Of a stretch of 64,000 nucleotides of DNA, positions 3,941 to 48,684 are shown piece after piece. Both the position numbers and the translations under genes were made by a program. Each line of letters opens with the position of its first letter. Positions within the stretch are counted from its first letter, which is position 1. The notes below the pieces were generated by a model, which saw only the letters and a program-made list of their open reading frames with translations, had not been told where the DNA came from and ran no database searches. The stretch lies in IMG/VR virus record IMGVR_UViG_3300028797_000097, one strand, 5' to 3'. The DNA is from a virus. Its lineage: Duplodnaviria; Heunggongvirae; Uroviricota; Caudoviricetes.

Positions 3941-3948
3941 TATAAATA
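3941..3948 (+). promoter_or_regulatory. T4-type late promoter motif TATAAATA, 4 nt upstream of ATG 3953
   Basis: Exact TATAAATA. The same motif recurs immediately upstream of many structural genes in this window. Confidence 0.45.
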
Positions 3949-5846: not shown

Positions 5847-5849
5847 AAA

Positions 5850-5880
5850 TAAAATCACCTTTAAAGGTGATTTTTTATTT
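5850..5880. terminator. Bidirectional rho-independent terminator shared by convergent genes
   Basis: Hairpin atcacc-tttaaa-ggtgat flanked by an A-run and a T-run. The minus-strand stop of gene 5875..6738 lies inside the T-run. Confidence 0.6.
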
Positions 5881-6738
5881 TCGTTTAAACGGATTTAATA
5901 ATTTTGTATATTCATTTTCAGGATAATCTATTGATTTATCAGTAGGTTGATCCTTATATTTTAAATTTTCTACACTATCTATTCTTGTTCTATTTAATTT
6001 TTCTTCCCATTCATCTAATGAACGATGATAATAATGGAACAATCTAATATCACAATTTGATACATTTATTTTTGCTTTTGGTCCTACAACTTTTGGTTCA
6101 AATGTTGTATTATTTGGTAGTGTTACAGGATAATTATTAATAAAATGTGGATATACAAATTTTATATGGTCCATAGTATTTTTTAAAAATCTATGAATAA
6201 ATGGTTTTACATCAACAAATGTTTCTTGATTATATTTTTCACTGACATACTTACAATCATCAATCATTGGTTTTTGTCTTGTTTTTGGTGTTTTAGATGA
6301 TTTATAAGAAATATTTGTTCTAGGAACACCAAATTGATAAATATCATTTTCATTTAATTTTTTTAAATAATCATTTATTGTTTTATATTTTGTTTTATCA
6401 AACCATAGATATTCGTCATCATCACAGAAAAATTGATATGTGTATTTATTATTTGTATTAACATATCTAGTATAATAATATTGTTGAACATTTAAAAATT
6501 TAGATTTATCATATAATAAAACAACATCTACTTTTTCATTATCTTTAAATTTTTCTTTTATATTACAACAATTACTTTCATTATCTACAATAATAATATG
6601 GTCAAATCCACACCAATTTAAATAGTGGTCAACCCATGAATCTATATCGCATTTTTTATATAATTTTGTTATTAATATAACTTCAGAAGAAATTGGTTTT
6701 GTTTTATATGGATTTTTCAATTCACTAGTTCTAAACAT
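5875..6738 (-). CDS. Putative GT-A fold glycosyltransferase
   Basis: HIIIVDNESN (GT2-like nucleotide-sugar binding motif) and an acidic FCDDDEYLW (DXD-like) motif. Confidence 0.35.
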   Translation of the reverse strand: MFRTSELKNPYKTKPISSEVILITKLYKKCDIDSWVDHYLNWCGFDHIIIVDNESNCCNIKEKFKDNEKVDVVLLYDKSKFLNVQQYYYTRYVNTNNKYTYQFFCDDDEYLWFDKTKYKTINDYLKKLNENDIYQFGVPRTNISYKSSKTPKTRQKPMIDDCKYVSEKYNQETFVDVKPFIHRFLKNTMDHIKFVYPHFINNYPVTLPNNTTFEPKVVGPKAKINVSNCDIRLFHYYHRSLDEWEEKLNRTRIDSVENLKYKDQPTDKSIDYPENEYTKLLNPFKRK

Positions 6739-12889: not shown

Positions 12890-13200
12890 ATATTTTTTAC
12901 ATTAAAGTCCTATTACTGGCTCGGAGTTCAACTCAATGAATTGTCGGATAAGTTTAGGCTAGTTGGAATCATAGGTGTGGTTCCAGGTAAAAACTAATTC
13001 ACCATCGACGTATTACTATAGCATGTAATACTTTAAGCCGCCATTGGTATTGAAAGATGTAGCTGGAGTACAGGATGACCGACCCATAAGCTTTCAAATA
13101 AATCCACTTAGTCGAAGACAGATGATCTTTTGCCTATTTTCCTAAATAGGCTTATTGTCTCAGAACAGATATTTTGAACGTGTGTGTAGATAAGTTTAAT
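12890..13200. other. ORF-free region of about 300 bp with visibly elevated GC and several hairpins. Candidate structured RNA (sRNA, tRNA-like or intron remnant).
   Basis: No ORF of 60 aa or more. The region reads as GC-richer than its surroundings (estimated about 45% against a genome-typical 32%). It contains a perfect 8-bp stem gcctattt/aaataggc and a ggtg...cacc hairpin. Confidence 0.25.
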
Positions 13201-13211
13201 ATAAATAATAT

Positions 13212-23981: not shown

Positions 23982-24734
23982 ATGATTGATACAAATAGCA
24001 TGTATGGTAATGTTCAAGAAGAACAGGATTCATTCGTTCAACTTCAGAAGCAACTTAAGCAGAAGGTTGAAGGTCAAAAGTTAACAGCAGAAGAAATTCA
24101 ACTTCCAGATTTCCCAAAGGAATATAATCCAGAAACTGCACTTCAGACTATGTTCAATATGCAGGAAGCACTTCAAAATATTCTTGCTGCAAAGCGTGGA
24201 ACTTTGGCTCCGACAAATAAGGAAGATAATTTCAAGAATGCAGTTCGTTCTGGTTATTTTATGATGTCCACTGTTACTGAGATTTGGGAATTCTTTGACC
24301 AACTCAAGAAGGATAATTATGAAATTACTGACCTTGTTAAGTATGAAATTATTGATGCTTGGCACTTCGTTATGAATCAGCTTCTTTATCTCAAGTATAA
24401 GCCAACATTTACACTTCCACAGCTTTACGATTTTGCTGTCGCTGATTTGAAGACTGGTACAATCGGTACTTCTGACCTTCATTATCTCGTCGGTGAATTC
24501 ATTGAAGCAGTTGGTGAACTTTATCAGAATTCGAGTTATAAGGATTGGAAGACTTATAAGGAATGGAAGGAAGATCCTCTTAAGATTAAGGAACTTGGCG
24601 ATACAATGTTGATTAAGTTCTTTAAGATTTTTGTAGCAATTAACCTTACACCTGATCAGATTTATCAGTTCTATTATAACAAGAACATCGAAAATGTCGA
24701 AAGACAGAAGGTCGGTGGAAGATACGAAAAGTAA
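23982..24734 (+). CDS. All-alpha NTP pyrophosphatase (MazG / dimeric dUTPase / dCTPase-like)
   Basis: Tandem ExxE...ExxD-type motifs (EIWEFFD...YEIIDAWHF; GEFIEAVGEL). Confidence 0.45.
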   Translation: MIDTNSMYGNVQEEQDSFVQLQKQLKQKVEGQKLTAEEIQLPDFPKEYNPETALQTMFNMQEALQNILAAKRGTLAPTNKEDNFKNAVRSGYFMMSTVTEIWEFFDQLKKDNYEITDLVKYEIIDAWHFVMNQLLYLKYKPTFTLPQLYDFAVADLKTGTIGTSDLHYLVGEFIEAVGELYQNSSYKDWKTYKEWKEDPLKIKELGDTMLIKFFKIFVAINLTPDQIYQFYYNKNIENVERQKVGGRYEK

Positions 24735-24787
24735 TTAAATTCTGACATTTTTATAAGAAGAGAAGATTTCATATCTTCTCTTTTTAT

Positions 24788-24795
24788 TATAAATA
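24788..24795 (+). promoter_or_regulatory. T4-type late promoter TATAAATA, 4 nt before ATG 24800, preceded by a terminator hairpin
   Basis: Exact motif. Upstream hairpin agagaagat/atcttctct. Confidence 0.45.
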
Positions 24796-24799
24796 ATGT

Positions 24800-25948
24800 A
24801 TGGCAGTTAATGAAGATAAAAAATTATCAGATTATGAACTAAAGACTTTGAGAGAGCTTCAACAGTCTAGCAATACAGCATATGTTCCAGCATTTACTGA
24901 AACAGAAAACTATAAATTTGATTCTAAAGAATTAAATGGACAAGTTTTACAGGCTGGAACTAATGTAACTATTGATAATAATAACGTAATTCGTGCTACA
25001 GATACAAAATTAAAAAGTAGTGATAATATTTCTGTTACATCAGATAATAAATTAGTATATACTGGTCCTCAAGGAGAAGGAACAGATCTTGAAGAAGATA
25101 GTACAAATTTATCAATTGGAAGACAATCAGATGGTAAATATAAAGTAAATCTTAATCTTGGCTATGGTTCAGAAGTAGCACAAGTTCATAGCGGTGCAAC
25201 AACTTATAATTGTACTTCTACATTTTTTACTTCTTCAGATGGCGGTAAATCAATAAAAGGTAATTTTGCAGGATTTGTAAATAATGCCATAACATTTGGT
25301 AGAGACCCAAATGAAGGTAATGTTCCAAATAGTAACCTTAATCTTGTTATTAGTGAAGATATTTCTGTGCAATATTGGAATGGTGGTTCAACAGATAGAT
25401 GGATTTTAGCTACTCCAGATGATGTATTATCATTTAAAAAAGTAAATGGAACATATCCACCTTATGCAAGTCGTGTTCGTGGTGATTATTATTCTCAGCT
25501 TATTTTTAATATGCCAAATATTGCTGCATTAACTTTACATACATGGTGGCTTCAACATGTAACTCATAGAGAGAATATTTTTGTTCAAGTTAATATGGGT
25601 GAAAGAATGCATGCATTATATATTTTTAATGGTATTGGCGATGATAATGAAGGTGCAAATTTTTATTTCTATCATAATGGATTAGTATATAAAAAAGAAA
25701 ATGTAAGTAAAGGAACTTTTGTTAATATTGCTAATATAGTTAACTGGAAATTATATACTGATTTATCTGGGTATGGAATTGAAAATGGTGCAGGCAACTC
25801 AAGACTAGTTAATTCATTACCTTTTACAACAAACACTAGAGGTGATGGTCAGGATGAATGGCTGATTTGCACAGTTCAAAGATTTTATTGTATACATGAA
25901 ACAGTTAATAATAAACATAATTATTATTTTATTGAATCTATGTATTAA
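24800..25948 (+). CDS. Tail fibre / receptor-binding-like protein, paralog 1
   Basis: Shares an N-terminal module (AGTNVTIDNNNVIRATDT...DNISVTSDNKLVYTG) with the next two genes and with the long fibre at 53190. The C-terminus is variable. Confidence 0.5.
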   Translation: MAVNEDKKLSDYELKTLRELQQSSNTAYVPAFTETENYKFDSKELNGQVLQAGTNVTIDNNNVIRATDTKLKSSDNISVTSDNKLVYTGPQGEGTDLEEDSTNLSIGRQSDGKYKVNLNLGYGSEVAQVHSGATTYNCTSTFFTSSDGGKSIKGNFAGFVNNAITFGRDPNEGNVPNSNLNLVISEDISVQYWNGGSTDRWILATPDDVLSFKKVNGTYPPYASRVRGDYYSQLIFNMPNIAALTLHTWWLQHVTHRENIFVQVNMGERMHALYIFNGIGDDNEGANFYFYHNGLVYKKENVSKGTFVNIANIVNWKLYTDLSGYGIENGAGNSRLVNSLPFTTNTRGDGQDEWLICTVQRFYCIHETVNNKHNYYFIESMY

Positions 25949-25957
25949 TGAGGATTT

Positions 25958-27091
25958 ATGGGAAAAATTAAAAGAAAGAAATTGTCATCATTTGAAACTA
26001 AAACACTATCTGAATTAAAAGAAATGGATGATAGAGGTAATAGCGTTTATATCCCATATATTCAACCTATTGACAATAACTATAAGCATGAAATTTCAGA
26101 ATGTGCAGAAAAATTAACTGCTGGTGAAAATATTCAGATAACTAACGAAGGGAGAGTAAACGCTACTGACACCCGTTATGTTGCTGGCGATAATATTGAA
26201 ATTAGTTCTGATGGAAAAGTGTCTTATGTAGGTGATGCTCCACAAACATATGCAACAGGAAGAGGATTAAGATTAACAAATAATACTAATATTTTAGCAT
26301 TAAACCTAGAAACAGATGGTGGGTCAACGTTTACATCGCAATATGGTTCAAAATTATCGCCTGTTACATTTAAAAATAATTACACATTAGAATTAGCTGG
26401 AAATGCAATGGATTCACTTTTTGTTCAAGTTGCAGATAGTGATAGAACCGACGGTTATAAAGTAATATGTTTAGATAATGATGGAATTACATTAAGAACT
26501 TCTTTAACTGCTACTGATACTAAAAAATATTATTGCACAAATGGTACTACTCGTGCTTGGTATAAATCCGCACAACAACCGTCAGGATATACAAAAATAA
26601 GAACATCTGATTATACTCATTTTGCTATTGATGTAGGAAATATTGGTCTATTATCAATGTCTGCTTTATTTTTACAAAGTCATAATAATAGAGAAACAAT
26701 TATTAATATGTTAAATAGAACAAGTGATAAAGAACCTGATTTAATACTTGTAAATGATACGTCATATAAGGCTGATGCATTTATATATGAACAAGGTTTA
26801 TTATCAGGTGCTACTAATATAAGTTTAAATACATCATCTGCAAATTATGCAACTATTGCAAAATTTGAAAACTCACAAAATAAATGGGTATCGTCATTTA
26901 CTCCTAATTATTATATTAAGACTGATGGAACGACACGTGTTGCATTACCGCCATTTTGTGGAAATGTTTTATCAATGGTAAATGGTAGTACATATACTGG
27001 CTTATTTTCTACACTTAGATTTATTCCAGCTGTTTCACTAGATACAACAAATTCAAAAACAACTATATCAATGGTATCAATGGAGTATTAA
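25958..27091 (+). CDS. Tail fibre / receptor-binding-like protein, paralog 2
   Basis: AGENIQITNEGRVNATDTRYVAGDNIEISSDGKVSYVGD. Divergent C-terminus. Confidence 0.5.
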   Translation: MGKIKRKKLSSFETKTLSELKEMDDRGNSVYIPYIQPIDNNYKHEISECAEKLTAGENIQITNEGRVNATDTRYVAGDNIEISSDGKVSYVGDAPQTYATGRGLRLTNNTNILALNLETDGGSTFTSQYGSKLSPVTFKNNYTLELAGNAMDSLFVQVADSDRTDGYKVICLDNDGITLRTSLTATDTKKYYCTNGTTRAWYKSAQQPSGYTKIRTSDYTHFAIDVGNIGLLSMSALFLQSHNNRETIINMLNRTSDKEPDLILVNDTSYKADAFIYEQGLLSGATNISLNTSSANYATIAKFENSQNKWVSSFTPNYYIKTDGTTRVALPPFCGNVLSMVNGSTYTGLFSTLRFIPAVSLDTTNSKTTISMVSMEY

Positions 27092-27094
27092 ATT

Positions 27095-28633
27095 ATGGCA
27101 GGATGGAAACAAAATAATAAAAATGAATTAGTAAAATTAAATAGTTATAGTAAAACTGATACTACGGATGCCGAGATACCTGTTGTTATTCCAGATGCAG
27201 GTAAAAATGCAAGATTTAAAGTTACTGATTTAGCTCCTGTATATAAAGATGATGAAAATAATTGTCTTAAAATCGAAGATGGTGTTATTTCTAAAACAGA
27301 CACAACATATCAGTCAGGTGATGATGTTATAAAAGTTAATACTGTTGGTAATGAAAATATTATTAGTTGTGATGGTTTTGGTGGTAAAAAATATGTTGCA
27401 GGAACAGCAATCCAAGTAACTGAAACTACTAATACTACCACTAATAAAGCAACATTTTCAACGCTTAAATCCTCAGAAGATAAATTGATGGGTAATATCC
27501 AAACCTATCAAAAACATCAACCTACTTACAGAAAAAATAGTAAAACAGAATTTGCTGGTTTTGCCAATTTATATGGTGTTATTGGAGACCCATGGTGGTC
27601 AGAATCATCACCAAATTCATATACAACAATTGCTAGAATTTCTGGTGGCAGAATTCATTGTTATAATAGTCAAATACAAGAAAAAACATATTATATAAAT
27701 GGTGATACTTCATCAGATGGATTATATAAATTTAATCAATATGCAATACATATGGCACGTGTTGGTGGTATATATGTAGATTATGCTTTTTTAACAAATC
27801 ATTTTAATCGTGAATTATATATTTCAAGAACATATACTCAATTTGATGCTAATCAAGGATCAAATTATGGTTGTAAATTTTATATAACAGAAAATTCTGG
27901 AAGTACTCGTAGACTTAGAGTTATAATTTATTCATGCGGTTATATTTGTGAAGGTTATTCAACTTCAAGCAATCCAGAAATTTGTTTACAAGATATTTGT
28001 TATTGGAATTGGTCTAATGGCCAAAATGGAAATAGTTTTAATTATATATTAAGACCAATAGATTCTTCATATAAGTTAAGAGATTATGGTTATAATGCAG
28101 TTTCTGTTCCAATAGAAAATGATGGCGGTGGACATGCTTTTATTACTGGAGGGATATGGCAGCTTGATAAATATTATGATTCAAATAATATACCATGTAC
28201 AGTAATGAATGATACATGGACAGAATTTGACTATACATGGTCATATAGTCAAACTGTTGGTTGGCGGCCTCAAATAGTACCAGGAACAGGTGTATCATAT
28301 AGCGCGCCAAAAACTATAACACAATATTCTAATTTTTATAAAACAGCAGATCCTCGTTATAATTATTGGCAAACAGCAAATAAAATTAGAACAAAATATT
28401 GTTATAATACAGATGTTGCAACAATAATGACCCTATCTCCTGATAATGCAAATTATGGTAAATATTCAACAATTTTACATGAAGGTGAAGTTCATAGAAA
28501 TTTTAATGAAGTATGTCCAATCTCATATGATGAATATTTTTCTAGTTTTAAATTTATGGTTAATGGATATGGCGTAACAACAGTAAATGGTAAAGATTAT
28601 GATACTGTTTATTTAGTTGATATGAGAAACTAA
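27095..28633 (+). CDS. Tail fibre / receptor-binding-like protein, paralog 3
   Basis: N-terminal module DGVISKTDTTYQSGDDVIKVNTVGNENIISCDG. Trp/Tyr-rich C-terminal domain. Confidence 0.45.
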   Translation: MAGWKQNNKNELVKLNSYSKTDTTDAEIPVVIPDAGKNARFKVTDLAPVYKDDENNCLKIEDGVISKTDTTYQSGDDVIKVNTVGNENIISCDGFGGKKYVAGTAIQVTETTNTTTNKATFSTLKSSEDKLMGNIQTYQKHQPTYRKNSKTEFAGFANLYGVIGDPWWSESSPNSYTTIARISGGRIHCYNSQIQEKTYYINGDTSSDGLYKFNQYAIHMARVGGIYVDYAFLTNHFNRELYISRTYTQFDANQGSNYGCKFYITENSGSTRRLRVIIYSCGYICEGYSTSSNPEICLQDICYWNWSNGQNGNSFNYILRPIDSSYKLRDYGYNAVSVPIENDGGGHAFITGGIWQLDKYYDSNNIPCTVMNDTWTEFDYTWSYSQTVGWRPQIVPGTGVSYSAPKTITQYSNFYKTADPRYNYWQTANKIRTKYCYNTDVATIMTLSPDNANYGKYSTILHEGEVHRNFNEVCPISYDEYFSSFKFMVNGYGVTTVNGKDYDTVYLVDMRN

Positions 28634-29313
28634 TGAATATAGTAGTAATTAATAAAAATCAAGAAGATAAAATTAATTTAATTGAAGACAAGATACATGA
28701 GTTTAATCATGTATTTTGTTTTGATAGATATAAACCAGATACAACAGTTCCAGCTGTTTATAATACAGAAGGAACTGGATTCTTGGCAGGTAAATGTAGA
28801 GACATCGGTGCAGCATATTTTGACTATAAAGGAGATTTCTTATTTCTTGATGGCGATAAAGTTCCAGAAGGCGATTTGAATATTATTCCTGAAATCGGTG
28901 CTGCCTGTGTTTTACTCGGTGTTGGTAAAAATGATCATCGTCAATTTATGCAGCAAGAAAATATAACGAAAGAATATAATTGGGATGAAGGTTTCGATTG
29001 TAAAAATCCGTTAAATTTTGTATATAGTTGTGGTATTTATCTTTCTCAGAAAGCAGTAGACTTAATGAGGAAAATAAACGGCGGTAGGATATTTCATCCT
29101 TGTTTTGATGGAACTTGGGGTGATGAAGACCGTTGGATTGGTGATGTTTTAGGTTTTTATAAAATTCCGATTTTTTATACTACAAAGGTAACACTGTCTG
29201 GACATATTACTTCTACTAGAGATGACCCGATGTCAGAAAAAGCACAGAATTTACACATAAACATGATAAAACGAATTCATTTGAGACAGGAAAAGTTGGG
29301 ATTACAGTTCTAA
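28633..29313 (+). CDS. GT-A fold glycosyltransferase (DXD plus WGxED motifs)
   Basis: FLFLDGDK and TWGDEDRWIGDVLG. Confidence 0.45.
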   Translation: MNIVVINKNQEDKINLIEDKIHEFNHVFCFDRYKPDTTVPAVYNTEGTGFLAGKCRDIGAAYFDYKGDFLFLDGDKVPEGDLNIIPEIGAACVLLGVGKNDHRQFMQQENITKEYNWDEGFDCKNPLNFVYSCGIYLSQKAVDLMRKINGGRIFHPCFDGTWGDEDRWIGDVLGFYKIPIFYTTKVTLSGHITSTRDDPMSEKAQNLHINMIKRIHLRQEKLGLQF

Positions 29314-29350
29314 TTTTTTATAAATAATATAAAATTATTAAGGAGAAAAC

Positions 29351-30637
29351 ATGAATTTAAGTGAAGCAAGAGATATTCTCGGTAAATGTGGATATTCATT
29401 TTTGAAAGAATCTACAGAATTAACCAGAGATATTATGCTTAAATATGCTAAGCAATTAGCACAGCAAAATGATAAAATTGGTATTATCAAGGGAAAAAAC
29501 CCAGAAGATGGTGATTTTGATATAATCATTTATTATAATAATGATAAGATTAAAGTTGCATCATATAAAGGTTATGAAAATGAAGTTTATGTAAGGGAAT
29601 TCAAGAGTTCTTTATCTGGAATGCCAGCAAAGAAAGTTGAAACCTTAGAAGATTTACGTTCATATATTGATTCTACATTGAAATATATGGAAAAATATAA
29701 AGAAGACAACAATAATCAATACAAAACAAGTGTCGAAGATATTGAAAAAGATAAGGAAGAATGGGCTAACAACATGGATCAAAACGAGTCATTAAAACTT
29801 AAAAAAGCATTACAGTTCCTTGCTGAATGCGGTTATACAATTAGTAAAAATACAAGAATTGATGAAATGTCTCGTGCATCTGACCGTGTTCTTGGTCATG
29901 ATTCTGCAGAAAACTTGCTTTATATGCTTGCTGACTGGAAGAAACAGTATGACAGAACTGGTAAGAATGCTACATTAGGTCAATTTGCCAAATTTGTTCA
30001 AGATAATGGCATTAGTTGGGACTTAATTAGTGGTCTCAGCTTACCAGGATTACCAAGAACAGAACCTCCTACACGTTCATCTAGGAGAATTGATTTGGAA
30101 GCTATTATTGCTTCTTTACAAGGTCAGCTTGGACAAGATGTTAGCGATGTTCGTAACCGTGTTGATTTAGGTAAGGATGATTACGATAGATTAATCGACA
30201 CCTTCTGGGATTATTATGAAAAGAACCGTGATGGTGAAGATGTTTCTGCACTTGTTGATTCTGAAAATTTCCAGGCACTCATTAGATTGTTTGCTGAAGA
30301 ACCAGAAACTGCACAGGAAGTCTTTGGTAGAAACTATGACAAGGCTAATAGCAAGTTACAGAGATTTATTAATCCTGATTCCGCAGCTGCTTTGATTGGC
30401 GAATTCTGGGATTGGTATTATGCTAAGAAGGCTGGTCGTGACATTGACTTCGATCCAGAAAAGGCAGAAAAGATTGCAGACTTGCTTGAAACCCCGAATG
30501 CTAAGGATGAAATTTTCGGCGGTAACGGTTCTTACTATACTGTTCTTAGAACAATTAGTAACATTGTTGGTAGACAGCTTGGTCAGAGAGATGCAGACTT
30601 CGATTACGATTCTTTGAATGGTGATTTGAGCCTCTAA
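29351..30637 (+). CDS. Member of the N-terminal-module family (two copies of the module), 428 aa
   Basis: Strong RBS aaggag. MNLSEARDILGKCGYSFLKE at the N-terminus and a second copy LKLKKALQFLAECGYTISKNT at about residue 145. Confidence 0.5.
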   Translation: MNLSEARDILGKCGYSFLKESTELTRDIMLKYAKQLAQQNDKIGIIKGKNPEDGDFDIIIYYNNDKIKVASYKGYENEVYVREFKSSLSGMPAKKVETLEDLRSYIDSTLKYMEKYKEDNNNQYKTSVEDIEKDKEEWANNMDQNESLKLKKALQFLAECGYTISKNTRIDEMSRASDRVLGHDSAENLLYMLADWKKQYDRTGKNATLGQFAKFVQDNGISWDLISGLSLPGLPRTEPPTRSSRRIDLEAIIASLQGQLGQDVSDVRNRVDLGKDDYDRLIDTFWDYYEKNRDGEDVSALVDSENFQALIRLFAEEPETAQEVFGRNYDKANSKLQRFINPDSAAALIGEFWDWYYAKKAGRDIDFDPEKAEKIADLLETPNAKDEIFGGNGSYYTVLRTISNIVGRQLGQRDADFDYDSLNGDLSL

Positions 30638-30662
30638 TATATCGTTTCAGACAACATTAAAT

Positions 30663-30699
30663 AAAAAGGGTTGACGGCAGTCACCCTTTTTGCTATATT
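30663..30699 (+). promoter_or_regulatory. Terminator hairpin overlapping a canonical sigma70 promoter TTGACG-N17-TATATT
   Basis: Stem gggt(t)gac/gtcaccc with a T-run. The -35 is at 30671-30676 and the -10 at 30694-30699. It drives the NfeD-like/flotillin pair. Confidence 0.6.
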
Positions 30700-30726
30700 T
30701 AGGAAAAACTTACAAGGAGATATAAA

Positions 30727-31218
30727 ATGATAGTAATCGCTTGGACGATTGTTGGTTTAACTGCACTTTTCATTATCTGCAGCTGCATAAAGAGTTGCGT
30801 CAGAATGGCAACAATGGAACGCTTTAAAAACGTTCCCATTCAGACACCTACCTTAATTGCAGATAAGAATAAGATTATTCAGTCATTATTTGATGATGAC
30901 GCTGAAAAGTTTTTCAAATATAAAGGTATAACATTCTGGTATTATAAGGATTCAAAGGATTACTTTGAAAAGCAGAGTTTTAGTGTTGCTGATGTAAAGA
31001 ATAAGATTGCACAGAAGTATGATGAACTCAAACAAGAACATCCAGGAATTACAGATTTTTTTGTTTCCATGACAAAACAAAATAATTATTTGACATGGGA
31101 ATTTGATCCGATTGACTTAAACTCTTATGTTCCGCCAAAGTCAACTAAGGATATTTGTATCGATGAGCTTAACAAATTAATAGAAAACAATGAAATAAAG
31201 GAAAAACATGACATCTAA
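30727..31218 (+). CDS. NfeD/YuaF-like membrane protein partner of flotillin
   Basis: N-terminal TM helix followed by a soluble domain of about 130 aa. It is immediately upstream of and overlapping the flotillin gene, as in the host yuaF-floT / yqiJ-yqiK operons. Confidence 0.4.
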   Translation: MIVIAWTIVGLTALFIICSCIKSCVRMATMERFKNVPIQTPTLIADKNKIIQSLFDDDAEKFFKYKGITFWYYKDSKDYFEKQSFSVADVKNKIAQKYDELKQEHPGITDFFVSMTKQNNYLTWEFDPIDLNSYVPPKSTKDICIDELNKLIENNEIKEKHDI

Positions 31219-32806
31219 TATGATCTACCCAATACTTATCGGAATTGCAGTAATTGCTTTAAGTATTCTCTTTTTTGCGTCTTATATCAAAGCCGCACCA
31301 GATGAAGTTAAAATCATCTCTGGTTTCCGACAACTAAGGACAATTATCGGACATTCAGGATTTAGAATTCCGTTCCTTGAGCAAGTCGATACTTTAAGCT
31401 TAAAGCTTATTCCAATCGATGTTAAGACCTCCGGTATTCCAACGTCAGATTATATTAATATCGCAGTTGATGCAGTCGTTCAGGTCAAAATTTCTGATGA
31501 AACTGCTGATATTAAGGTTGCTGCACAGAACTTCTTAAATAAGAATCCAGATGAAATTAAGAAGATGATTAGTGAAGTTCTTGAAGCAAACATGAGAGAG
31601 ATTGTTGGTCAAATGGAACTTGTCAAGCTTGTTAATGACAGACAACAGGTTTCTAAGAAGGTTCTCGAAAATGCTTCTCCAGACTTAAAGAAACTCGGTA
31701 TTGTTATTCAAACATTTAATATTCAGAACTTCTCTGATTCAGCAAAGGTTATTGAAAACCTCGGTGTTGACAAGGCAGTTGCAATTCAGAAAGCAGCAGC
31801 AATTTCTAGGGCCAATGCAGAAAGAGACGTTAAGATTGCTCAGGCAGAAGCAGCTAAGGAAGCAAACGATGCACAGGTTGCATCTAACCTCGAAATCGCA
31901 CAGAAGCAAAACGACTTAGAAGTTAAGAAGGCTGACCTTAAGAGAATTTCCGATAGCAAGAAGGCTGAAGCTGATGCCGCTTACGAAATTCAGAAGCAAG
32001 AACAGCAAAAGACCATTAACATTGCAGCTGCAGCAGCTGAAGTTGCAAAGCAGGAAAAACAGATTGAAATTCGTGAAAGAATGGTAGCTGTTAGACAGAA
32101 GGAACTCGAAGCTGAAATCCAGAAGAAGGCAGAAGCAGAAAAGCAAGCACAAATTCAGAAGTCTGATGCTGACCTTTATAGACAACAGAAGGAAGCTGAA
32201 GCAGCACTCTTCACACAGAAGCAACAGGCTGAAGCTATTAAGGCTAAGGCTGAAGCTGATAAGCAAAAAGCATTCGCTGAAGCTGCAGCAACTAAGGCTA
32301 AGGGTGAAGCAGAAGCTGATGCTGTAAAGGCTAAGGGTCTTGCAGAAGCAGCAGCACTTGACCAGAAGGCTGAAGCTATGAAGAAGTATGGTGATGCAGC
32401 AAGACAGGAAATGCAGCTCAGAACTATTGAAAAGTATTTCGAACAGTTACCAGCTATTGCAAGTGCCGTTGCAAAACCGATGGAAAAGATTGGCAATATC
32501 AATATGTATGGTGAAAGCGGTACAGCTAAGCTCACTGGCGATATTACCAAGACACTTACACAAGTTTCTAGTGGTTTAACTGATTCTCTTGGTATTGATC
32601 TTAAGACTGTTCTCGGTTCTATGTTCGGTGCACATCTTGCTGGACTCGAAAAGAAACCGTCGCAGGTCCCTGTTGAAGTTGCAAAGAACGATCCAGCAGT
32701 TCCAGCTACCCCAGCTCAGGCTACTCCAGTAGAATCTCCGGTTCAAATGTCTGAATCTGATATTGAACAGGCAGCAGCAGCATTTCTTAGAAAGCGTAAG
32801 CACTAA
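31208..32806 (+). CDS. Flotillin-like SPFH protein (FloT/YqiK-like, 532 aa)
   Basis: N-terminal TM segment, SPFH domain and a long A/E/K-rich flotillin-type coiled-coil (AEAEKQAQIQK...KAEADKQKAFAEAAATKAKGEAEADAVKAKG). Confidence 0.85.
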   Translation: MTSNMIYPILIGIAVIALSILFFASYIKAAPDEVKIISGFRQLRTIIGHSGFRIPFLEQVDTLSLKLIPIDVKTSGIPTSDYINIAVDAVVQVKISDETADIKVAAQNFLNKNPDEIKKMISEVLEANMREIVGQMELVKLVNDRQQVSKKVLENASPDLKKLGIVIQTFNIQNFSDSAKVIENLGVDKAVAIQKAAAISRANAERDVKIAQAEAAKEANDAQVASNLEIAQKQNDLEVKKADLKRISDSKKAEADAAYEIQKQEQQKTINIAAAAAEVAKQEKQIEIRERMVAVRQKELEAEIQKKAEAEKQAQIQKSDADLYRQQKEAEAALFTQKQQAEAIKAKAEADKQKAFAEAAATKAKGEAEADAVKAKGLAEAAALDQKAEAMKKYGDAARQEMQLRTIEKYFEQLPAIASAVAKPMEKIGNINMYGESGTAKLTGDITKTLTQVSSGLTDSLGIDLKTVLGSMFGAHLAGLEKKPSQVPVEVAKNDPAVPATPAQATPVESPVQMSESDIEQAAAAFLRKRKH

Positions 32807-38588: not shown

Positions 38589-39059
38589 ATGGCAAGAGCA
38601 AAAACACTTAAATTAAAAGCTGGAACTAATATTACATTGACAAAAGATGATACATCTGTAACAGTAGGATGTATTAGTGATGGTCCATCTGTTACTAATG
38701 AAAAAATCAAAATTTATGATATAAAAATTATAGCAGACCGGCAAGAATCAACAGGCTATCGTTTTGATGGTACGCCATCTGCAGAAGAATTAATATCTTT
38801 ATTGGTTGGTGATACTGGAGCTGGTAGTTTAGCAATATTAAGAGCTATAGAAGATGTCGGTGAAGGCATAAAAAATGAAAAATGGTATTATTTACAAGAT
38901 ATTAGTGGTTGGCATATTGAAATGCAGTCAAACATGTATGTTTTTACATTTATCCATACTAATGCAGTAACTAGTATTTCCCATGATGTTATTACATGTA
39001 ATGTTGGAAAAACTGGTGAAGGATATAGTACAGTATGGACACTATCACATATGCAATAA
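38589..39059 (+). CDS. Late structural-module protein, 156 aa
   Basis: N-terminus KLKAGTNITLTKDD resembles the fibre N-terminal module. Confidence 0.4.
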   Translation: MARAKTLKLKAGTNITLTKDDTSVTVGCISDGPSVTNEKIKIYDIKIIADRQESTGYRFDGTPSAEELISLLVGDTGAGSLAILRAIEDVGEGIKNEKWYYLQDISGWHIEMQSNMYVFTFIHTNAVTSISHDVITCNVGKTGEGYSTVWTLSHMQ

Positions 39060-39089
39060 TTTAAAACAATAATATTACAATAAAAAGGG

Positions 39090-39118
39090 TTGACAAAAGT
39101 CAGCTCTTTTTCTATATT
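39090..39118 (+). promoter_or_regulatory. Canonical sigma70 promoter TTGACA-N17-TATATT upstream of the cadherin-like gene
   Basis: -35 at 39090-39095 and -10 at 39113-39118. Near-identical context to the promoter at 30671 (aaaaagggTTGAC...tttttCTATATTT). Confidence 0.6.
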
Positions 39119-39177
39119 TATTTAAATTAATTAGAAAACTATAAATATATAGAATTTTTAATAAGAAGGTAATAAAA

Positions 39178-42100
39178 ATGAAAAAGATAATCGGAATATT
39201 ATTAGTTTTAGCTGCATTTGTTTTTTCTGCAGACTATAAGCCGTTTAACTTTGAAACTATCCCACAAGATTCTGCAAGTCAACAGGATCAATTTGATTAT
39301 ATGCTTCAATATAAGTTATATGGTCATGATTTTATCAAAATGGGAAATGATGTTCGTATTCCAGACAAGTCAGGTTGGAATGGTACTGTAGGTAATATTA
39401 CTTCTAATGCAAGATTGACCTTGGGCGGTCCGATTCTTGCAAATGGTAGTATTTCTATGGGTGATGGTCCAAATAATATTACTGGACCAGTTCGCTCAGT
39501 CGATTTTGATCTTGGAAATGTAAATAATTCCAAAATCGCAAGCCCTGTTTGCTTAAGCGGAACCGCAAATGCTAATGCATTGTCTGCGATTGAAGATCAT
39601 AAGACTTATTCTTTCGATGCAAACATTTGTAAGGACAGCGTTCCTGCTGCACCTACAAATCTTTATATGCCGATTGTTGATTGGGATAATCTTGGTGCTG
39701 ATGTTAAGTTGGATGATATTGTTTTAAGTGGCAATGATGCTACAGATACTATTTTTGTTCCTAAAGGTGAAGGCGCATATAAGATTTTAATTGATAAGAT
39801 TCAGTTTGGCCTTGGCGGAACTAATGCAAGCCATTTGTATGTTAAGATGCAAGATGGCGGTAGATTGACCCAGATTTTCGTAAAGAATTTTATTTATGGA
39901 AATCATGCTACAATTCAGGTTGTTTATGATACTGACAGTGGAAGCGTAGTATTGAATCAGGACCAATATCGTGGTAACTTGATGTTCTATTCTAATAATG
40001 TTATCAGTTTTGATAATATGGACTATGCTCCTATTCAAGGTTCATTTATTTCTACTGATTCAATTTTCTTGGGAAGAAACGTTAATATTTCTGGTCAGTT
40101 ATTGACTAATAAGCTTGAAATTGGAAATGATATTGATGGTAAAAACTTCAGATTTGTTAAATTCGACCCTGATACAATCGATGTTAAGCTTGATAAGTAT
40201 GGTGGTTTGAGAGAAAATGATTCTACTGTTATTATTCCTATTGAACTAAGTGATACTGCTACTATCGCTGTATATTTTAGATATTGTTTTGATTTGAAAG
40301 ATGGTGTAACTGTTGAAGATTTTAATATTCCGCCTACATTCCCTATTTGTAACATCGATCAACCGAAAGAAGTATCTATTCCTATCGGTTCAAAGATTCC
40401 AAGTGATCCAATTAAGGTAAATGTTAAAGTCGATACATTGACAGAAAATGAATATCTTGTAATTAAGATTGATAGCATTTCTGGTGCTATTCTTCCTGAT
40501 GGTAAGACTGAAGGAGAATTAAAGATTAAGATTATTGACGCTCCTATTGGACATGTTGAATTTGATACTACAAAGACATATGAGTTTGAGGAAAATAAAC
40601 TTGGTGAAGTAGATGTAATCAAGATTTTAAATGGAACTGAAAATACTCGTTTCCATCTTGATAGTGCATATACTGATAGATATGAATTGGATAGCTTGAC
40701 TGGTAAGTTGACACTTATTGGTGAACCATTAGATTATGAAAAGGCTGCAATCGATGTTATTAAGGTTACATTGACTGATACTGGCAATGTAAGTGTAACT
40801 CGTAATATTCCTATTACAGTAATTGACGTTAATGAAGCACCTACTATCGATGATGTAACTGCTAATCTTCCGGAAAATCTTATTCATCCATTCATGGTTG
40901 AAAAGTTAGTTGCAAAAGATCCAGATACTAAGACAACATTTACTCAAAATGTTTTCAGTATGCTTGAAGGTGATACAAGCTTATTTAGAGTAGATTCTGA
41001 TGGTGAAATTTGGGCAAAGAAGACATTTGACTATGAAACTGATCAGAAAACCTATACTTTGAAGGTTTTGGTTCATGATAAGACTAATCCAGCATTGAAG
41101 GATAGTGCTATTGTTACTGTTAATATCACAAACAGCAATGATGGTCCTAAGTTTGACAGAAATGATACTACATTCCATGTAAATGAAAATGAACCATTTA
41201 AGGATAGTGTAAAGGCAACTGACCAGGATGGTGATAAGATTACTTATTCTATCATTGGAAGTGTTCCATTCAAAATTGATTCTACTGGCGTAATTACTTC
41301 TACTAGAACATTTGACTATGAAAAAGAAAAAGAATTTACATTCAAGGTCATTGCTGATGATGGTAAAGCAAAAGATACAATGACTGTAAATATTATAGTA
41401 GACAATGTAAATGAGCCTGTTCATACCAAAGATACAACTTTTGTTGTAGATGAAGGTAAAACTGGTGAAATCGGTAAAGTCAAAGGAGAAGATGAAGATG
41501 GAAAGCCTGTTAAATTTTCTTGCGATGATAGTGTGCATTACAGCATCGATACTAATACTGGTATTCTTAGACTGGTAGACCCATTTGACTATGAGATTAC
41601 AAAATCTGATACCATAAAGGTATTTGTTACTGATAGTCTATTTACAGATACTGCCATAGTTATTATTAATGTTAATAATGTAAATGAACCTCCTGTATTA
41701 CAGCCAAATGATTCTCTTACAGTTCCAGAAAATTGTAAGAATTGTATTGTTGGTATTATTACAGCAGTTGACCCTGACAGTGATAAGGTAATTTACGAAG
41801 TTAAGGAACCTGGTTTCACAATCGATACAAATGGAGTATTAAAGCTCACTGATCCTCTTGATTATGAGAAAACTCCAGAAGTTAAGATTACAGTTATTGC
41901 AAAGGATTCTAGTGGCGCAGCTGATACTGCCACCTATATAATTAAGATAACTGATATTAATGAACCAGTCCATGTTCAAGATACAACTTGTTCTGTAAAG
42001 GAAAATTATACTGGTAAGGTTTGCAAGATTACAGCAACTGATGAAGATAAAACAACTCCTAAATATATAATTACCGATACTACAAATTATTCTATCGATT

Positions 42101-43986
42101 CTACTGGTGTAATTACTATTAAGAACCCGATTGATTATGAAAAGAAGACTAAGGACACAGTAACTGTTATTGTAACTGATGACGAATTTTCTGATACCGC
42201 ACAGGTAATTATCAGAGTTCTCGATGAACCTGAAAAGGTTGAAATTACCACATGGGATGATGAAAAGCCTAAAGATACAGTAAAGACAAATGACCCAGAT
42301 CATAAGTTCGAATGGGAACTTTGTGAAGGTGATAGCTGTATTAAGCATGAAGAATTTCCGCATATCAAGAAAGATACAACTATCAAGGTATGTAATGATA
42401 AGAAGACTGTTTGTGATTCAGTTGTAGTTTTATTCAATGATGCACCTCCAGTTGTTACTTTGACAAATGCAAAGTCTACTGATGCATTGATTGACTATAT
42501 TACAATCGAAGAACAGAAGGACGATAAGATTTATGTCAACAAGAAAGAAAATCCAATTACTGTAACTGTTAGAGATACTGTTCATAAGACAGAAAAGAAA
42601 TTTGATATTAAAGTTAAGCTTGATACAATTCCTACTAAGGATATTAAGATTAAGGAATATAACTACTTGATTGATGAATCTCTTGCAACTCATACAGCAA
42701 TAGGTAACAATCTTATTGAAGTTTCTGAAGTTATTTCTGTTGACGGTAATAAGATAACAATTTCTAAGATTGTTGATAAGAAGACAATGGAACCAATCGA
42801 TACAGTTCAAACTGTTACTTATCATAAGAAGGTTGGTGGTAAGGACGTAGTTGTTTCTTATAAGACTGATAATCTTACTGGTCAGAGAGTTTCTGATTAT
42901 GAAATTTCTTACATGGCTGATTCTTGCACTAAGGTTACATATACTGTAAATGATAAGAAGGAAATTGTTAAGAATAAGGAAGGAAATATTGCATATAATA
43001 TCACTTATGATTATGTAGATGATTTTGGTAACAAAGCATCTGCATCAGTTGAAATTATCTTCGACGATATTCCGCCTAAGGTTGAAATTCTTGGACCTGG
43101 TCCAATGGAACATTTCAATACAAATGCAATTCCAGTTAAGTGGACAGTTAATGGCGAAACACAAGATACTTTGACATTACAGAGACTTGAAAAAGGTGTT
43201 AACTATATTATCAGAAGATATGTAGATAAGGCTGGTAACGTCGCTGCTGATACAGTCACAGTTCTTATGAATGAAGCCAAGGATATTGATATTGAAATTA
43301 TCAATCCAGTAACCAAGGTTGACCAGGATAAAGTTGATGAATATTATTCTGAAGGTCATAAGTATAATGATAAGAAACCGTTTGACGTCAAGTTTGTTGA
43401 CCCGAAGAACGATACAATTCCAGATGTAATTGGTGTTGGTTTCAAGGTTGATATTGTACTTCCGTCTGTTTCTCCTACTGGTTCTCTTGCAACATTGGAT
43501 GACATTGTAAAGAATGGTCAGATTCCAGTTGATGATAAGGGAAATATCGTTGGTGCTTCTACAAAGGGAATTCCAGTAGATAAGTATGTTGAAGAACATT
43601 GTACTGAAGAATTCCAGAAGGATTACGATAAGTATGGTTTGAATATTCCGCTTTATGACGTTACTTATAAACTTCATCTTTGGGTATATACAACTACTGC
43701 AAACTATGTAAATGATTTTAATATTGAATTTACATTGAATGATGAAGCTAAGACTACTACAGCAGGAACTGTCCAGATGGTTATCGACTGGTTGTCTGAT
43801 AAGGATGGAAACGTCAAGGCTAAGAACCATCATGCTTTAGGAACAGGCGCATATATAACCAAGTTGTTCAGCACTTCTGTTGCAAAACACCGTTGTGATT
43901 ATAAGGATCAAGTTAAGGGTGATAGAACTGTAAAGAAGGATGAAACAATGAAAACATTTGGTTATAAGCGACCAAACAACAAGTAA
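39178..43986 (+). CDS. Giant secreted cadherin-repeat protein (1602 aa)
   Basis: Sec signal peptide MKKIIGILLVLAAFVFSADYK. Multiple repeats of about 100 aa ending in cadherin-type linkers (VIDVNEAPTI, NSNDGPKF, VDNVNEPVH, VNNVNEPPV, ITDINEPVH). Confidence 0.7.
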   Translation: MKKIIGILLVLAAFVFSADYKPFNFETIPQDSASQQDQFDYMLQYKLYGHDFIKMGNDVRIPDKSGWNGTVGNITSNARLTLGGPILANGSISMGDGPNNITGPVRSVDFDLGNVNNSKIASPVCLSGTANANALSAIEDHKTYSFDANICKDSVPAAPTNLYMPIVDWDNLGADVKLDDIVLSGNDATDTIFVPKGEGAYKILIDKIQFGLGGTNASHLYVKMQDGGRLTQIFVKNFIYGNHATIQVVYDTDSGSVVLNQDQYRGNLMFYSNNVISFDNMDYAPIQGSFISTDSIFLGRNVNISGQLLTNKLEIGNDIDGKNFRFVKFDPDTIDVKLDKYGGLRENDSTVIIPIELSDTATIAVYFRYCFDLKDGVTVEDFNIPPTFPICNIDQPKEVSIPIGSKIPSDPIKVNVKVDTLTENEYLVIKIDSISGAILPDGKTEGELKIKIIDAPIGHVEFDTTKTYEFEENKLGEVDVIKILNGTENTRFHLDSAYTDRYELDSLTGKLTLIGEPLDYEKAAIDVIKVTLTDTGNVSVTRNIPITVIDVNEAPTIDDVTANLPENLIHPFMVEKLVAKDPDTKTTFTQNVFSMLEGDTSLFRVDSDGEIWAKKTFDYETDQKTYTLKVLVHDKTNPALKDSAIVTVNITNSNDGPKFDRNDTTFHVNENEPFKDSVKATDQDGDKITYSIIGSVPFKIDSTGVITSTRTFDYEKEKEFTFKVIADDGKAKDTMTVNIIVDNVNEPVHTKDTTFVVDEGKTGEIGKVKGEDEDGKPVKFSCDDSVHYSIDTNTGILRLVDPFDYEITKSDTIKVFVTDSLFTDTAIVIINVNNVNEPPVLQPNDSLTVPENCKNCIVGIITAVDPDSDKVIYEVKEPGFTIDTNGVLKLTDPLDYEKTPEVKITVIAKDSSGAADTATYIIKITDINEPVHVQDTTCSVKENYTGKVCKITATDEDKTTPKYIITDTTNYSIDSTGVITIKNPIDYEKKTKDTVTVIVTDDEFSDTAQVIIRVLDEPEKVEITTWDDEKPKDTVKTNDPDHKFEWELCEGDSCIKHEEFPHIKKDTTIKVCNDKKTVCDSVVVLFNDAPPVVTLTNAKSTDALIDYITIEEQKDDKIYVNKKENPITVTVRDTVHKTEKKFDIKVKLDTIPTKDIKIKEYNYLIDESLATHTAIGNNLIEVSEVISVDGNKITISKIVDKKTMEPIDTVQTVTYHKKVGGKDVVVSYKTDNLTGQRVSDYEISYMADSCTKVTYTVNDKKEIVKNKEGNIAYNITYDYVDDFGNKASASVEIIFDDIPPKVEILGPGPMEHFNTNAIPVKWTVNGETQDTLTLQRLEKGVNYIIRRYVDKAGNVAADTVTVLMNEAKDIDIEIINPVTKVDQDKVDEYYSEGHKYNDKKPFDVKFVDPKNDTIPDVIGVGFKVDIVLPSVSPTGSLATLDDIVKNGQIPVDDKGNIVGASTKGIPVDKYVEEHCTEEFQKDYDKYGLNIPLYDVTYKLHLWVYTTTANYVNDFNIEFTLNDEAKTTTAGTVQMVIDWLSDKDGNVKAKNHHALGTGAYITKLFSTSVAKHRCDYKDQVKGDRTVKKDETMKTFGYKRPNNK

Positions 43987-47734: not shown

Positions 47735-48028
47735 ATGTTAGATACTTTAATGTTAATCTGTGGTTTTTGTGGAGCTGGTGCTTTTGCAGTTTGTTCATTA
47801 CCACAAGTTATTAAAGCTTATAAAACTAAGTCGACAGGTGATATAAGTATTTTCTTTATTATCTTGTCAATTATCGGTAATTTATGTAGTGCTGCTTATA
47901 TATTCTATACTAATTATATAAGTGGAATGTGGCAATATCCGCAATATGTAAATTATACTTTGGCAACTATACTTATATTTATCCTTCTCGGGTTAAAACT
48001 AAAATATGATAAGGAAAATAAAAAATGA
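47735..48028 (+). CDS. PQ-loop / SemiSWEET-like small membrane protein (97 aa, three predicted TM segments)
   Basis: RBS aaaggaag before ATG 47735. PQ motif CSLPQVIKAYKTKSTGDISIFFIILSIIGN. The stop overlaps the next start (ATGA). Confidence 0.5.
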   Translation: MLDTLMLICGFCGAGAFAVCSLPQVIKAYKTKSTGDISIFFIILSIIGNLCSAAYIFYTNYISGMWQYPQYVNYTLATILIFILLGLKLKYDKENKK

Positions 48029-48684
48029 GTATAATGGATCTTATCGGTGTTCAAAGAGGAATTGATTTTGAACATAGTTTACCAACTGTAATGCGATATA
48101 AACCTGATATAAGAGAAGGTTATGAATATGGCAGTTTTGAACCTAAATATGGTCATACGCCAAATTGGCAACCTTTATGTAGTAATTCTTCAGACTTATA
48201 TAAAGAAATCGTTTTAGCATGTAAGCAGGTTGCAAAAGTTACAGAAATGAAAAATCCAATAGGTAATGATCCTTTTTGGCATCGTAGTGGACCTGAACGT
48301 GCAGGAACGATTGTTTCTAAGATAATACAGCTTTGTAATGATATTGCTATTGCTACTCGACAAGGTCAAGGCAATGTTATTGTATTAAATACTAAGATGT
48401 ATGATTTATTACGTGAGTTAACATTTGGTTTTATGGATTGCCCATTTATTTCTGAATCTGCTCCAGGCGTATTAAAGATTGTTGGAAGAGATGCTTTTAA
48501 AATGGATTTTGACGATTATTCAAATTATCCAGAAGCTATTATGACATATCATTCTAATAATTCGTGTGTATGTGGTGCTATTGCAGCACTTAGTCCTACC
48601 GAGACTTATTTTTCAATTAATACTGATATGGAAGGAACAGAGAATTATTATAGACTTTTAAGGGTAAAAGATGAATTACAGTAA
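48025..48684 (+). CDS. Paralog A of an uncharacterised 220-aa family flanking nrdG
   Basis: Homologous to 49152..49823 (M.I.DLI.VQ; GTIVSKIIQLCNDIAIATRQGQGNVIVLN vs CGVLLTNLMKECNSIRTSTRRCAGNYILIN; C-terminal YYRL). Confidence 0.5.
   Translation: MSIMDLIGVQRGIDFEHSLPTVMRYKPDIREGYEYGSFEPKYGHTPNWQPLCSNSSDLYKEIVLACKQVAKVTEMKNPIGNDPFWHRSGPERAGTIVSKIIQLCNDIAIATRQGQGNVIVLNTKMYDLLRELTFGFMDCPFISESAPGVLKIVGRDAFKMDFDDYSNYPEAIMTYHSNNSCVCGAIAALSPTETYFSINTDMEGTENYYRLLRVKDELQ

Follow-up and report, generated by a model that had tools for sequence, protein, structure and literature searches.

A candidate host-recognition cassette of three fibre-type paralogs, followed by a predicted GT-A glycosyltransferase gene, appears to be replaced as a block among near-identical T4-like phages

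The T-even genes gp37/gp38 and the T7-like gene gp17 are host-range islands of low identity, with variation in distal surface loops. Some viruses, among them mycobacteriophages and chloroviruses, are also known to encode glycosyltransferases that act on capsid or tail proteins. The T4 proteins gp10, gp11 and gp12 are trimeric. In the Ackermannviridae, including CBA120 and S117, the host-recognition genes TSP1 to TSP4 stand in tandem and have related N-termini; similar phages exchange them, and host range can be predicted from them (PMC8432352). One published account (PMC3004832) describes T4 gp10-gp11-gp12 as sequential genes transcribed on one polycistronic mRNA, with products at the baseplate periphery that are thought to come from one primordial fold. 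Here we describe a four-gene cassette, p1 to p4, at positions 24,800 to 29,313 of a 64,000-nucleotide stretch of the Caudoviricetes record IMGVR_UViG_3300028797_000097 (the window). The cassette is probably a late operon in which three ancient paralogous fibre-type virion proteins (p1, p2 and p3) make up an exchangeable host-recognition module, followed by a conserved GT-A transferase (p4). We favor this reading because of a fibre repeat, a late-type signal, C-terminal variation and, most of all, the exact replacement of a block within a nearly clonal backbone.

All features of the cassette are on the plus strand. The open reading frames (ORFs) of the fibre-like paralogs p1 (382 amino acids, 24800–25948), p2 (377 amino acids, 25958–27091) and p3 (512 amino acids, 27095–28633) are followed by p4 (226 amino acids, 28633–29313), all exactly where an initial annotation of this DNA had put them. 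It had also placed the cassette after a nucleoside triphosphate (NTP) pyrophosphatase gene in the replication region, and domain matches confirm this. The gene upstream of p1 codes for an NTP pyrophosphohydrolase of the dUTPase_2/MazG type, and the neighbors of the cassette are replication genes (UvsW, UvsX, DnaB, gp32, primase and exonuclease).

A comparison among related phages, as the initial annotation had proposed, found the trio swapped as a block with near-identical flanks. Most of the relatives were recovered by exact-protein look-ups in the ENA and Logan assemblies, scans of the IMG/VR and JGI metagenomes having yielded very few loci. No relative is known outside metagenomic contigs, which reach 182 kb and are designated here by L numbers. 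Every relative recovered keeps the order of pyrophosphohydrolase gene, three genes and 226-residue gene, and the position of the cassette is identical in every relative examined. The modular acquisition suggested in the initial annotation was therefore not borne out, the relatives examined giving no sign of a recent insertion, although the GC content of the cassette is lower than that of its flanks. By the lengths of p1/p2/p3 there are at least five allele classes (382/377/512, 382/376/520, 378/346/439, 404/362/452 and at least 367/361/446 residues), and all five keep the trio and the conserved transferase.

Identities below are of amino acids relative to the window proteins unless stated to be of nucleotides. 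In L022 the backbone proteins are nearly the same as in the window (UvsX 99.5%, DnaB 98.3%, gp32 97.7%, pyrophosphohydrolase 98.8%, flotillin-like protein 97.0% and exonuclease 97.3%), p4 is 92% identical, and p1, p2 and p3 are only 32%, 30% and 28% identical. Nucleotide homology of L022 to the window (95%) ends at 24797, at the end of the promoter-like element TATAAATA right before the p1 ATG, and restarts at 28591, just ahead of the p3 stop and p4 start codons. L012 has a pyrophosphohydrolase 96% identical over the 93 residues available and a p4 89% identical over the 36 available, with p1, p2 and p3 at 40%, 36% and 34%. For L009 the values are 100% (pyrophosphohydrolase), 81%, 74% and 74% (p1 to p3) and 99% (p4). 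For L001 they are 94% (gp32), 66% (pyrophosphohydrolase), 71%, 65% and 69% (p1 to p3), 95.6% (p4) and 97.3% (exonuclease). These profiles suggest that p1–p3 are inherited and replaced as one unit, with p4 belonging to the conserved backbone. Full-length copies of p4 are 85–99% identical across all allele classes, and the gene appears to be under strong purifying selection because its ratio of nonsynonymous to synonymous divergence (dN/dS) is 0.02–0.05.

Mosaicism was also seen beyond the cassette, as in the pyrophosphohydrolase gene at window 23982–24734 and L001 7936–8712, which has the low value given above next to a well-kept gp32. L005 was dropped as evidence for a cassette swap. Its nucleotide profile puts the mosaic boundary inside the gp32-pyrophosphohydrolase region, with 80–91% nucleotide identity in the gp32 region (L005 385–2589) and about 100% in the cassette.

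The same contrast between flanks and trio is found at shorter distances. For L009 and L008, synonymous divergence (dS) in the flanks is 0.11–0.17 with a dN/dS of 0–0.04, and in p1–p3 dS is 0.23–0.60 with a dN/dS of 0.30–0.55. The lowest nucleotide-identity bins are in the 3' part of each gene. They include 71% at 26700–26999 in p2, its lowest bin against both L008 and L009, and 72% at 28200–28499 in p3 against L009. Variation within orthologs was taken from about 100 (p1), 60 (p2) and 20 (p3) sequences, the p1 orthologs in metagenomes forming about 100 clusters at 90% identity. Conservation is highest at the two ends, in the first 80 residues and the last strand; in p1, the first 80 residues are 84–92% and the last 22 residues 94–100% identical to the window. 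The variable patches fall in the C-terminal third of each protein. In p1 the most variable patch is residues 321–360 (25760–25879), with 41–50% identity to the window and an entropy of 0.63–0.78, and in p2 it is residues 281–320 (26798–26917), with 39–43% identity and an entropy of 0.86–1.06. Residues 341–460 of p3 (28115–28474) hold three patches, 341–360, 381–400 and 441–460, with 31–46% identity and an entropy of up to 1.15. The trio is accordingly an island of divergence between close phages, with variable distal patches. A diversity-generating retroelement of the Mtd type was considered and rejected, as no direct repeat of at least 40 nucleotides involves the variable patches. The sole repeat touching the cassette (51 nucleotides, 75% match, 25990–26040) is in the conserved N-terminus of p2.

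Unrelated C-termini had been ascribed to the three proteins, and the alignments contradict this. BLASTP aligns about 330 residues of p1 and p2 at 26% identity (E 6e-20), and hhalign extends their homology almost end to end (residues 1–346, 99.3% probability, E 1.5e-20). The homology of p3 covers about 290 residues, with p2 15–297 aligned to p3 7–291 (93.7%, E 1.9e-7) and p1 4–293 to p3 10–265 (E 6.5e-6). The last C-terminal strands line up by eye only, in a 13-sequence MAFFT alignment (LYSTIRFIP...LVSxxY, YFSSFKFM...YLVDMRN and CTVQRFYCIHE...YFIESMY), in which p3 differs chiefly by an insertion of about 140 residues in its C-terminal half. By these alignments p1–p3 are full-length paralogs. 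In a tree of all copies the first, second and third genes cluster by position and not by phage, suggesting that the triplication predates the allele classes and that each copy keeps its own identity. The pattern agrees with a host-specificity fibre module whose genes are inherited together, and not with recent duplicates or a recently inserted block. Of the earlier proposal that the three proteins are alternative tips or receptor-binding proteins, a fibre-type role in host interaction remains the best reading, given the repeat and the hypervariable island. Alternative tips do not agree with full-length paralogs that are all three kept.

The N-terminal module of p1–p3 consists of two copies of a 22-residue repeat with the consensus LTAGxNIxIxxxNVISATDTxYTAGxNIxI. 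The double repeat covers residues 48–90 of p1 (24941–25069; residues 49–90 in the match to the repeat model), 51–94 of p2 (26108–26239) and, more diverged, 49–96 of p3 (27239–27382). A hidden Markov model (HMM) made from 671 copies of the repeat in other proteins matched p2 (E 1.5e-18), p1 (3.8e-17) and p3 (2e-11). The shared module reported in the initial annotation is thus real and far above chance, not low-complexity noise.

A search of 1.84 billion representative proteins with the family profile gave 757 matches, about 15 clusters being full length. Among the 150 matches listed, most of the others cover only profile positions 50–110, in 2–11 tandem copies, and these partly matching proteins span roughly 100–1590 amino acids. 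In the protein P0064 the motif is present as four tandem copies (LTAGxNIQIxxxxISATDTKYTAG), and its gene is two genes downstream of the portal gene in a podovirus-like contig. A tblastn search of INPHARED with the P0064 repeat block, in which the low-complexity filter may have masked the query, matched nothing. The majority of 71 repeat-bearing proteins scanned had no Pfam match. Informative matches were to Big_3 (10 proteins), Phage_tail_C (3), Phage_fiber_rpt (2), Gp10_C (2), BppU_N (1) and Collagen (1), while five further single-member matches look spurious. PHROG matches of these proteins include several tail-fibre, tail and minor-tail families. Since the repeat is found in tandem in proteins annotated as tail or fibre, and its HMM matches p1–p3, the module is best explained as a short piece of fibre shaft made of two 22-residue units. 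A fibrous repeat architecture is therefore common to p1–p3 and known fibres.

The module had also been assigned to the long fibre at 53190, and this we could not reproduce. BLASTP of that protein against p1–p3 gave nothing significant, the family motif HMM matched it only at E 0.54 and at a site that is not N-terminal, a second HMM gave E 25, and the general repeat HMM had no match below E 5. A module common to p1–p3 and the long fibre was rejected after BLASTP and two HMMs. The N-terminal and motif HMMs find no other protein in the window, the best other ORF scoring 0.025, and p1–p3 do not share a conserved N-terminal anchor with the other fibres of this phage.

Structure prediction of the C-termini, also proposed in the initial annotation, was run on p2 with AlphaFold2 (AF2), as a monomer and from a 49-sequence alignment. 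It returned a beta-rich domain but no fold match. In residues 150–377 the mean predicted local distance difference test score (pLDDT) of 10-residue blocks is mostly 73–94, dipping to 49–62 around residues 321–350. Residues 1–150 are unreliable, as is common for a fibre shaft modeled as a monomer. Foldseek found nothing at E≤1e-3 for the p2 model among predicted viral structures, and a profile search of PDB sequences with the trio alignment gave noise only. In the model and these searches, the head domain of p1–p3 is without a recognizable known relative.

The octamer TATAAATA is the T4 late-promoter consensus. An identical copy is found at 24788–24795, 4 nucleotides before the start codon of p1. 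It directly follows a terminator-like hairpin with a U-tract (24755–24787) that lies 3' of the pyrophosphohydrolase gene. The fold of 24735–24800 has a free energy of −19.1 kcal/mol (z −4.8), equaled in none of 200 shuffles, and the hairpin probably sets the cassette apart from the upstream unit. L012 has a putative hairpin of different sequence at the same place, and L001 and L011 have another inverted repeat there, judged by eye. The TATAAATA before p1 is kept in all four allele classes with p1 upstream sequence, even where the sequence of the neighboring hairpin differs completely. The window has 27 copies of the octamer versus 14.6 expected (for example at 3941–3948, 13200–13207, 24788–24795, 39140–39147 and 53158–53165). 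Twenty of them are intergenic, in a window with an intergenic share of only 9%, and 18 are no more than 120 nucleotides upstream of a long ORF on the same strand. The octamer precedes the genes for the gp3-like protein, the long fibre, a 1602-residue cadherin-domain protein, p1 and the protein after p4, and is not found before the gp32, DnaB, pyrophosphohydrolase, primase and exonuclease genes.

Spacing within the cassette is tight, with 9 nucleotides between p1 and p2, 3 between p2 and p3, and an overlap of the p3 stop and p4 start codons as TAATG. Ribosome-binding sites are GAGGA for p2 and GGAG for p3. The arrangement is consistent with one tightly packed operon, p1–p4, behind the terminator hairpin and the T4-late-promoter-like TATAAATA. 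The four genes appear to form a late transcription unit with the octamer as its putative promoter.

Two further observations concern such signals. In five cases TATAAATA is only 4–6 nucleotides before a start codon, an odd distance for a promoter, and these sites might give leaderless or very short-leader mRNAs. A 42-nucleotide element found at 30660–30701 and 39079–39120 (83% identity between copies) is a hairpin with T-runs. It has TTGAC within it and TATATTTA after it, and it resembles a terminator joined to a promoter of the sigma-70 type.

The GT-A glycosyltransferase that had been annotated directly after the trio is supported by both AF2 and Foldseek. The p4 model has a pLDDT of 92.8 and a predicted template modeling score (pTM) of 0.91, and Foldseek matched it to 84 PDB structures at E≤1e-3. 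The listed matches are mostly GT-A enzymes, with a probability of 1.00 and template modeling scores of 0.5–0.63, and include ColGalT1, K4CP, RmlT, LARGE1, TarP, GalNAc-T2, Mimivirus R699, STIV A197 and KfiA; further down come nucleotidyltransferases and eIF2B subunits, which share the fold. With its alpha/beta/alpha GT-A fold in the model, p4 is by fold a GT-A glycosyltransferase, predicted to be soluble and of a single domain. Its sequence in the window has no Pfam match at E≤0.1 and no PHROG match, and a profile search of PDB sequences gave noise only. Homologs at about 40% identity are common in metagenomes. Among 28 family members, three relatives match PF00535 Glycos_transf_2 (best E 2.8e-6), and two carry PF00535 in precomputed annotation. 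Invariant in the 28 members are D31-R32, FLAG, FLDGD with the DxD motif D73-G-D75 (28849–28857), YxCG, and G163-x-E165-D166 within an FDGxWGxED block. By analogy, the DxD and acidic residues would form the metal and nucleotide-sugar site.

Homologs of p4 are also encoded in other surroundings. In L020, a 259-kb phage contig, one directly follows genes matching tail-fibre PHROGs. In L018, a 168-kb contig, one is paired with a Methyltransf_24 gene beside a large YadA-head-like gene. The phage-like contig L018 also has, about 1.5 kb upstream of its p4 homolog, an IS200/IS605-type pair of a Y1 transposase and an OrfB/TnpB-like gene (4807–6587).

We infer the virion location, trimeric state and receptor binding of p1–p3, as well as the substrate of p4, as follows. 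The trio would be anciently triplicated paralogs of one fibre-type family, most likely trimeric, located on the tail or baseplate and recognizing the host surface. Each protein would begin with about 45 conserved residues, followed by two 22-residue beta-repeats as the shaft, a linker, and a beta-rich C-terminal head that carries the hypervariable patches and the conserved last strand. The four genes would be transcribed together from the T4-late-type TATAAATA element, and because of this late-type start p1–p4 would be made when structural proteins are made. All three fibre-like genes would be swapped at once by homologous recombination in conserved flanking sequences, which are the promoter and pyrophosphohydrolase gene to the left and p4 to the right. 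The products would be near-isogenic phages that probably differ in host specificity.

Several findings weigh against this reading. The trio is amid replication genes, outside any tail module. None of p1–p3 has a Pfam, PHROG, PDB-sequence or INPHARED match, and the searches found no known receptor-binding or depolymerase domain homologous to the head. The N-terminus too diverges between allele classes (34–64%), while classical fibre anchors stay fixed. In a separate scan of ten proteins, the repeat was also found in the bacterial P0266, an adhesin with a YadA stalk and anchor and an SLH domain, so the repeat marks fibrous proteins generally and not phage tails only. As to the late-type signal, UvsW and NrdD are also preceded by TATAAATA, and a distance of just 4 nucleotides to the p1 ATG is awkward for a promoter. 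Finally, L018 and L020 encode p4 homologs but no relatives of p1–p3, and therefore the transferase family is not bound to the p1–p3 fibre family.

The fibre repeat, late-type promoter and hypervariability would suit any exposed fibrous virion protein equally, and p1–p3 could be decorations with no part in host choice, for instance whiskers or fibres of the head or neck similar to T4 Hoc or fibritin. Their variation would then come from binding environmental surfaces (mucus or plant fibre) or from being exposed antigens. Consistent with this, the 10 Big_3 proteins among the 71 with the repeat have an Ig-like domain typical of decoration proteins, and the window has a separate long-fibre cluster (53190–61188). 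However, a Pfam scan found no Ig-like or capsid-binding domain in p1–p3 themselves, and an exact block replacement at 28–32% identity in a 97–99% identical backbone is typical of host-specificity genes. We consider the decoration role improbable.

It is very improbable that p1–p3 are outside the virion altogether, as intracellular or cell-associated proteins of a hyperplastic region with, for example, an anti-defense or superinfection-exclusion role, where an arms race mimics the variation of receptor-binding proteins. The position between replication genes, the elevated dN/dS and the lack of homology to a known structural domain would be expected of such genes. But the double repeat is common to proteins whose annotations, if they have any, point to tails, fibres or surface adhesins. 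Gene content is constant, with three position-specific orthologs, unlike in typical hyperplastic regions. In addition, the late-type promoter motif is present, and inspection of the N-termini of p1–p3 gave no obvious signal peptide or membrane segment.

A stricter form of the host-recognition module would make p1–p3 obligate partners of one receptor-binding assembly, possibly a 1:1:1 heterotrimer formed on the N-terminal repeats, with p4 O-glycosylating the Ser/Thr-rich repeat (SATDTxY) much as bacterial heptosyltransferases do with the repeats of autotransporters. Since the three chains would have to co-evolve, they could then be replaced only as a block. We regard so specific an assembly as highly doubtful.

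For p4 the substrate is a separate question. It is possible, and our tentative preference, that p4 glycosylates a virion fibre protein during assembly. Modification of a host envelope glycopolymer (teichoic acid, lipopolysaccharide or capsule), acting against superinfection or the loss of progeny on debris, is rather unlikely. The prophage transferase TarP does modify a host glycopolymer, and the listed fold matches of p4 include the wall-teichoic-acid transferases RmlT and TarP. A p4 that stays conserved beside varying fibres would be expected if its substrate is a conserved host molecule or nucleotide-derived. A nucleotide pyrophosphohydrolase gene is upstream of the cassette, and a Stealth-type capsule phosphotransferase gene is near the p4 homolog of L020. 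That homolog, however, follows tail-fibre genes. Further, p4 is a bare catalytic domain of 226 residues with no membrane or oligomerization module, and in every allele class its translation is coupled to that of p3, downstream of a putative late-type promoter. Phage DNA is a less likely substrate still, as T4 DNA glucosyltransferases have a different fold, GT-B.

The window is from a low-GC genome (about 32% guanine plus cytosine), with about 30% in the cassette and 34–35% in its flanks. Encoded in the region are a gp32-type single-stranded DNA-binding protein, UvsX, UvsW, a DnaB-type helicase, primase, exonuclease, NrdD and a gp3-like tail-sheath stabilizer, a gene set by which the phage is classed as a distant T4-type myovirus. 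Its gp32 is about 30% identical to gp32 of cultured phages. No near match to the window region was found in 50,697 GenBank phage records, and a megablast of 24000–30000 and tblastn of p2 and p4 against INPHARED matched nothing.

Other variable or surface-type genes are also encoded in the window. The gene after p4 (29351–30637, 428 amino acids) has its own TATAAATA and an AAGGAG site. Its product has a 147-residue N-terminal extension that is lacking in L001, L011 and L022 (280–281 amino acids), making it a second variable spot adjoining the cassette. A 532-residue protein (31208–32806), 97% identical in L022, is of the Band_7/flotillin type by the precomputed Pfam annotation of an identical ortholog, which is unusual in a phage. 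Pfam assigns several cadherin and bacterial Ig-like domains (E 1.5e-42) to the 1602-residue protein encoded at 39178–43986, possibly a large decoration or surface protein. Just upstream of its gene, a small ORF (38589–39059) has a marginal match to the fibre repeat (E 0.004). The long-fibre cluster at 53190–61188 includes a gene with internal 108-nucleotide repeats for a protein of 1128 residues. A 702-residue protein (56939–59047) with collagen-like Gly-X-Y runs is 25% identical to the 53190 protein over 326 residues (E 3e-9) and matches phrog_24103, a family also matched by five of the 71 repeat-bearing proteins. Near the anaerobic ribonucleotide reductase genes, 48025–48684 and 49152–49823 code for paralogs with 28% identity over 224 residues (E 5e-19).

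If p1–p3 are host-recognition proteins, the locus is a natural experiment, with near-isogenic backbones that carry at least five deeply diverged alleles of a delimited three-gene module. Host-range determinants of an uncultured T4-like lineage would then be predictable from sequence and swappable by design, and the head would be a new fibre-head family without a known structural relative. The conserved neighboring transferase raises the possibility of glycosylated phage fibres. Should p1–p3 not be in the virion, the locus would still be a clean arms-race island.

The cassette is best seen as an uncharacterized variation on the well-known theme of host-recognition genes that phages exchange, and is unusual in its clean boundaries and its fixed composition of three paralogs. 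By sequence and fold, p1–p3 do not belong to the TSP or the gp10, gp11 or gp12 families, and the likenesses to both clusters are in organization, not demonstrated ancestry. Like STIV A197 and Mimivirus R699, p4 is a single-domain GT-A protein of about 200 residues with a DxD motif, though unlike in these its sequence is below detection by the Pfam GT2 model. Among functional analogs, the TSP1-4 cluster of the Ackermannviridae is closest to the cassette. Its products are beta-helix depolymerases with recognizable domains and a conserved N-terminal XD, whereas neither a depolymerase nor an XD domain is detectable in p1–p3. Unlike the TSP genes, p1–p3 are replaced whole, N-terminus included, there are always three of them, each an ortholog specific to its position, and they are located in the replication region. 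Within the T4-type phages the closest formal analog is gp10-gp11-gp12, as p1–p3 are likewise three sequential genes in a T4-like phage. Similar to the mosaicism of gp37/gp38 and gp17, p1–p3 are a low-identity island in a conserved genome with variation in distal patches. In those systems the distal part of one fibre gene is swapped, while in p1–p3 the exchange takes in three complete genes, from the first start codon to the last stop codon.

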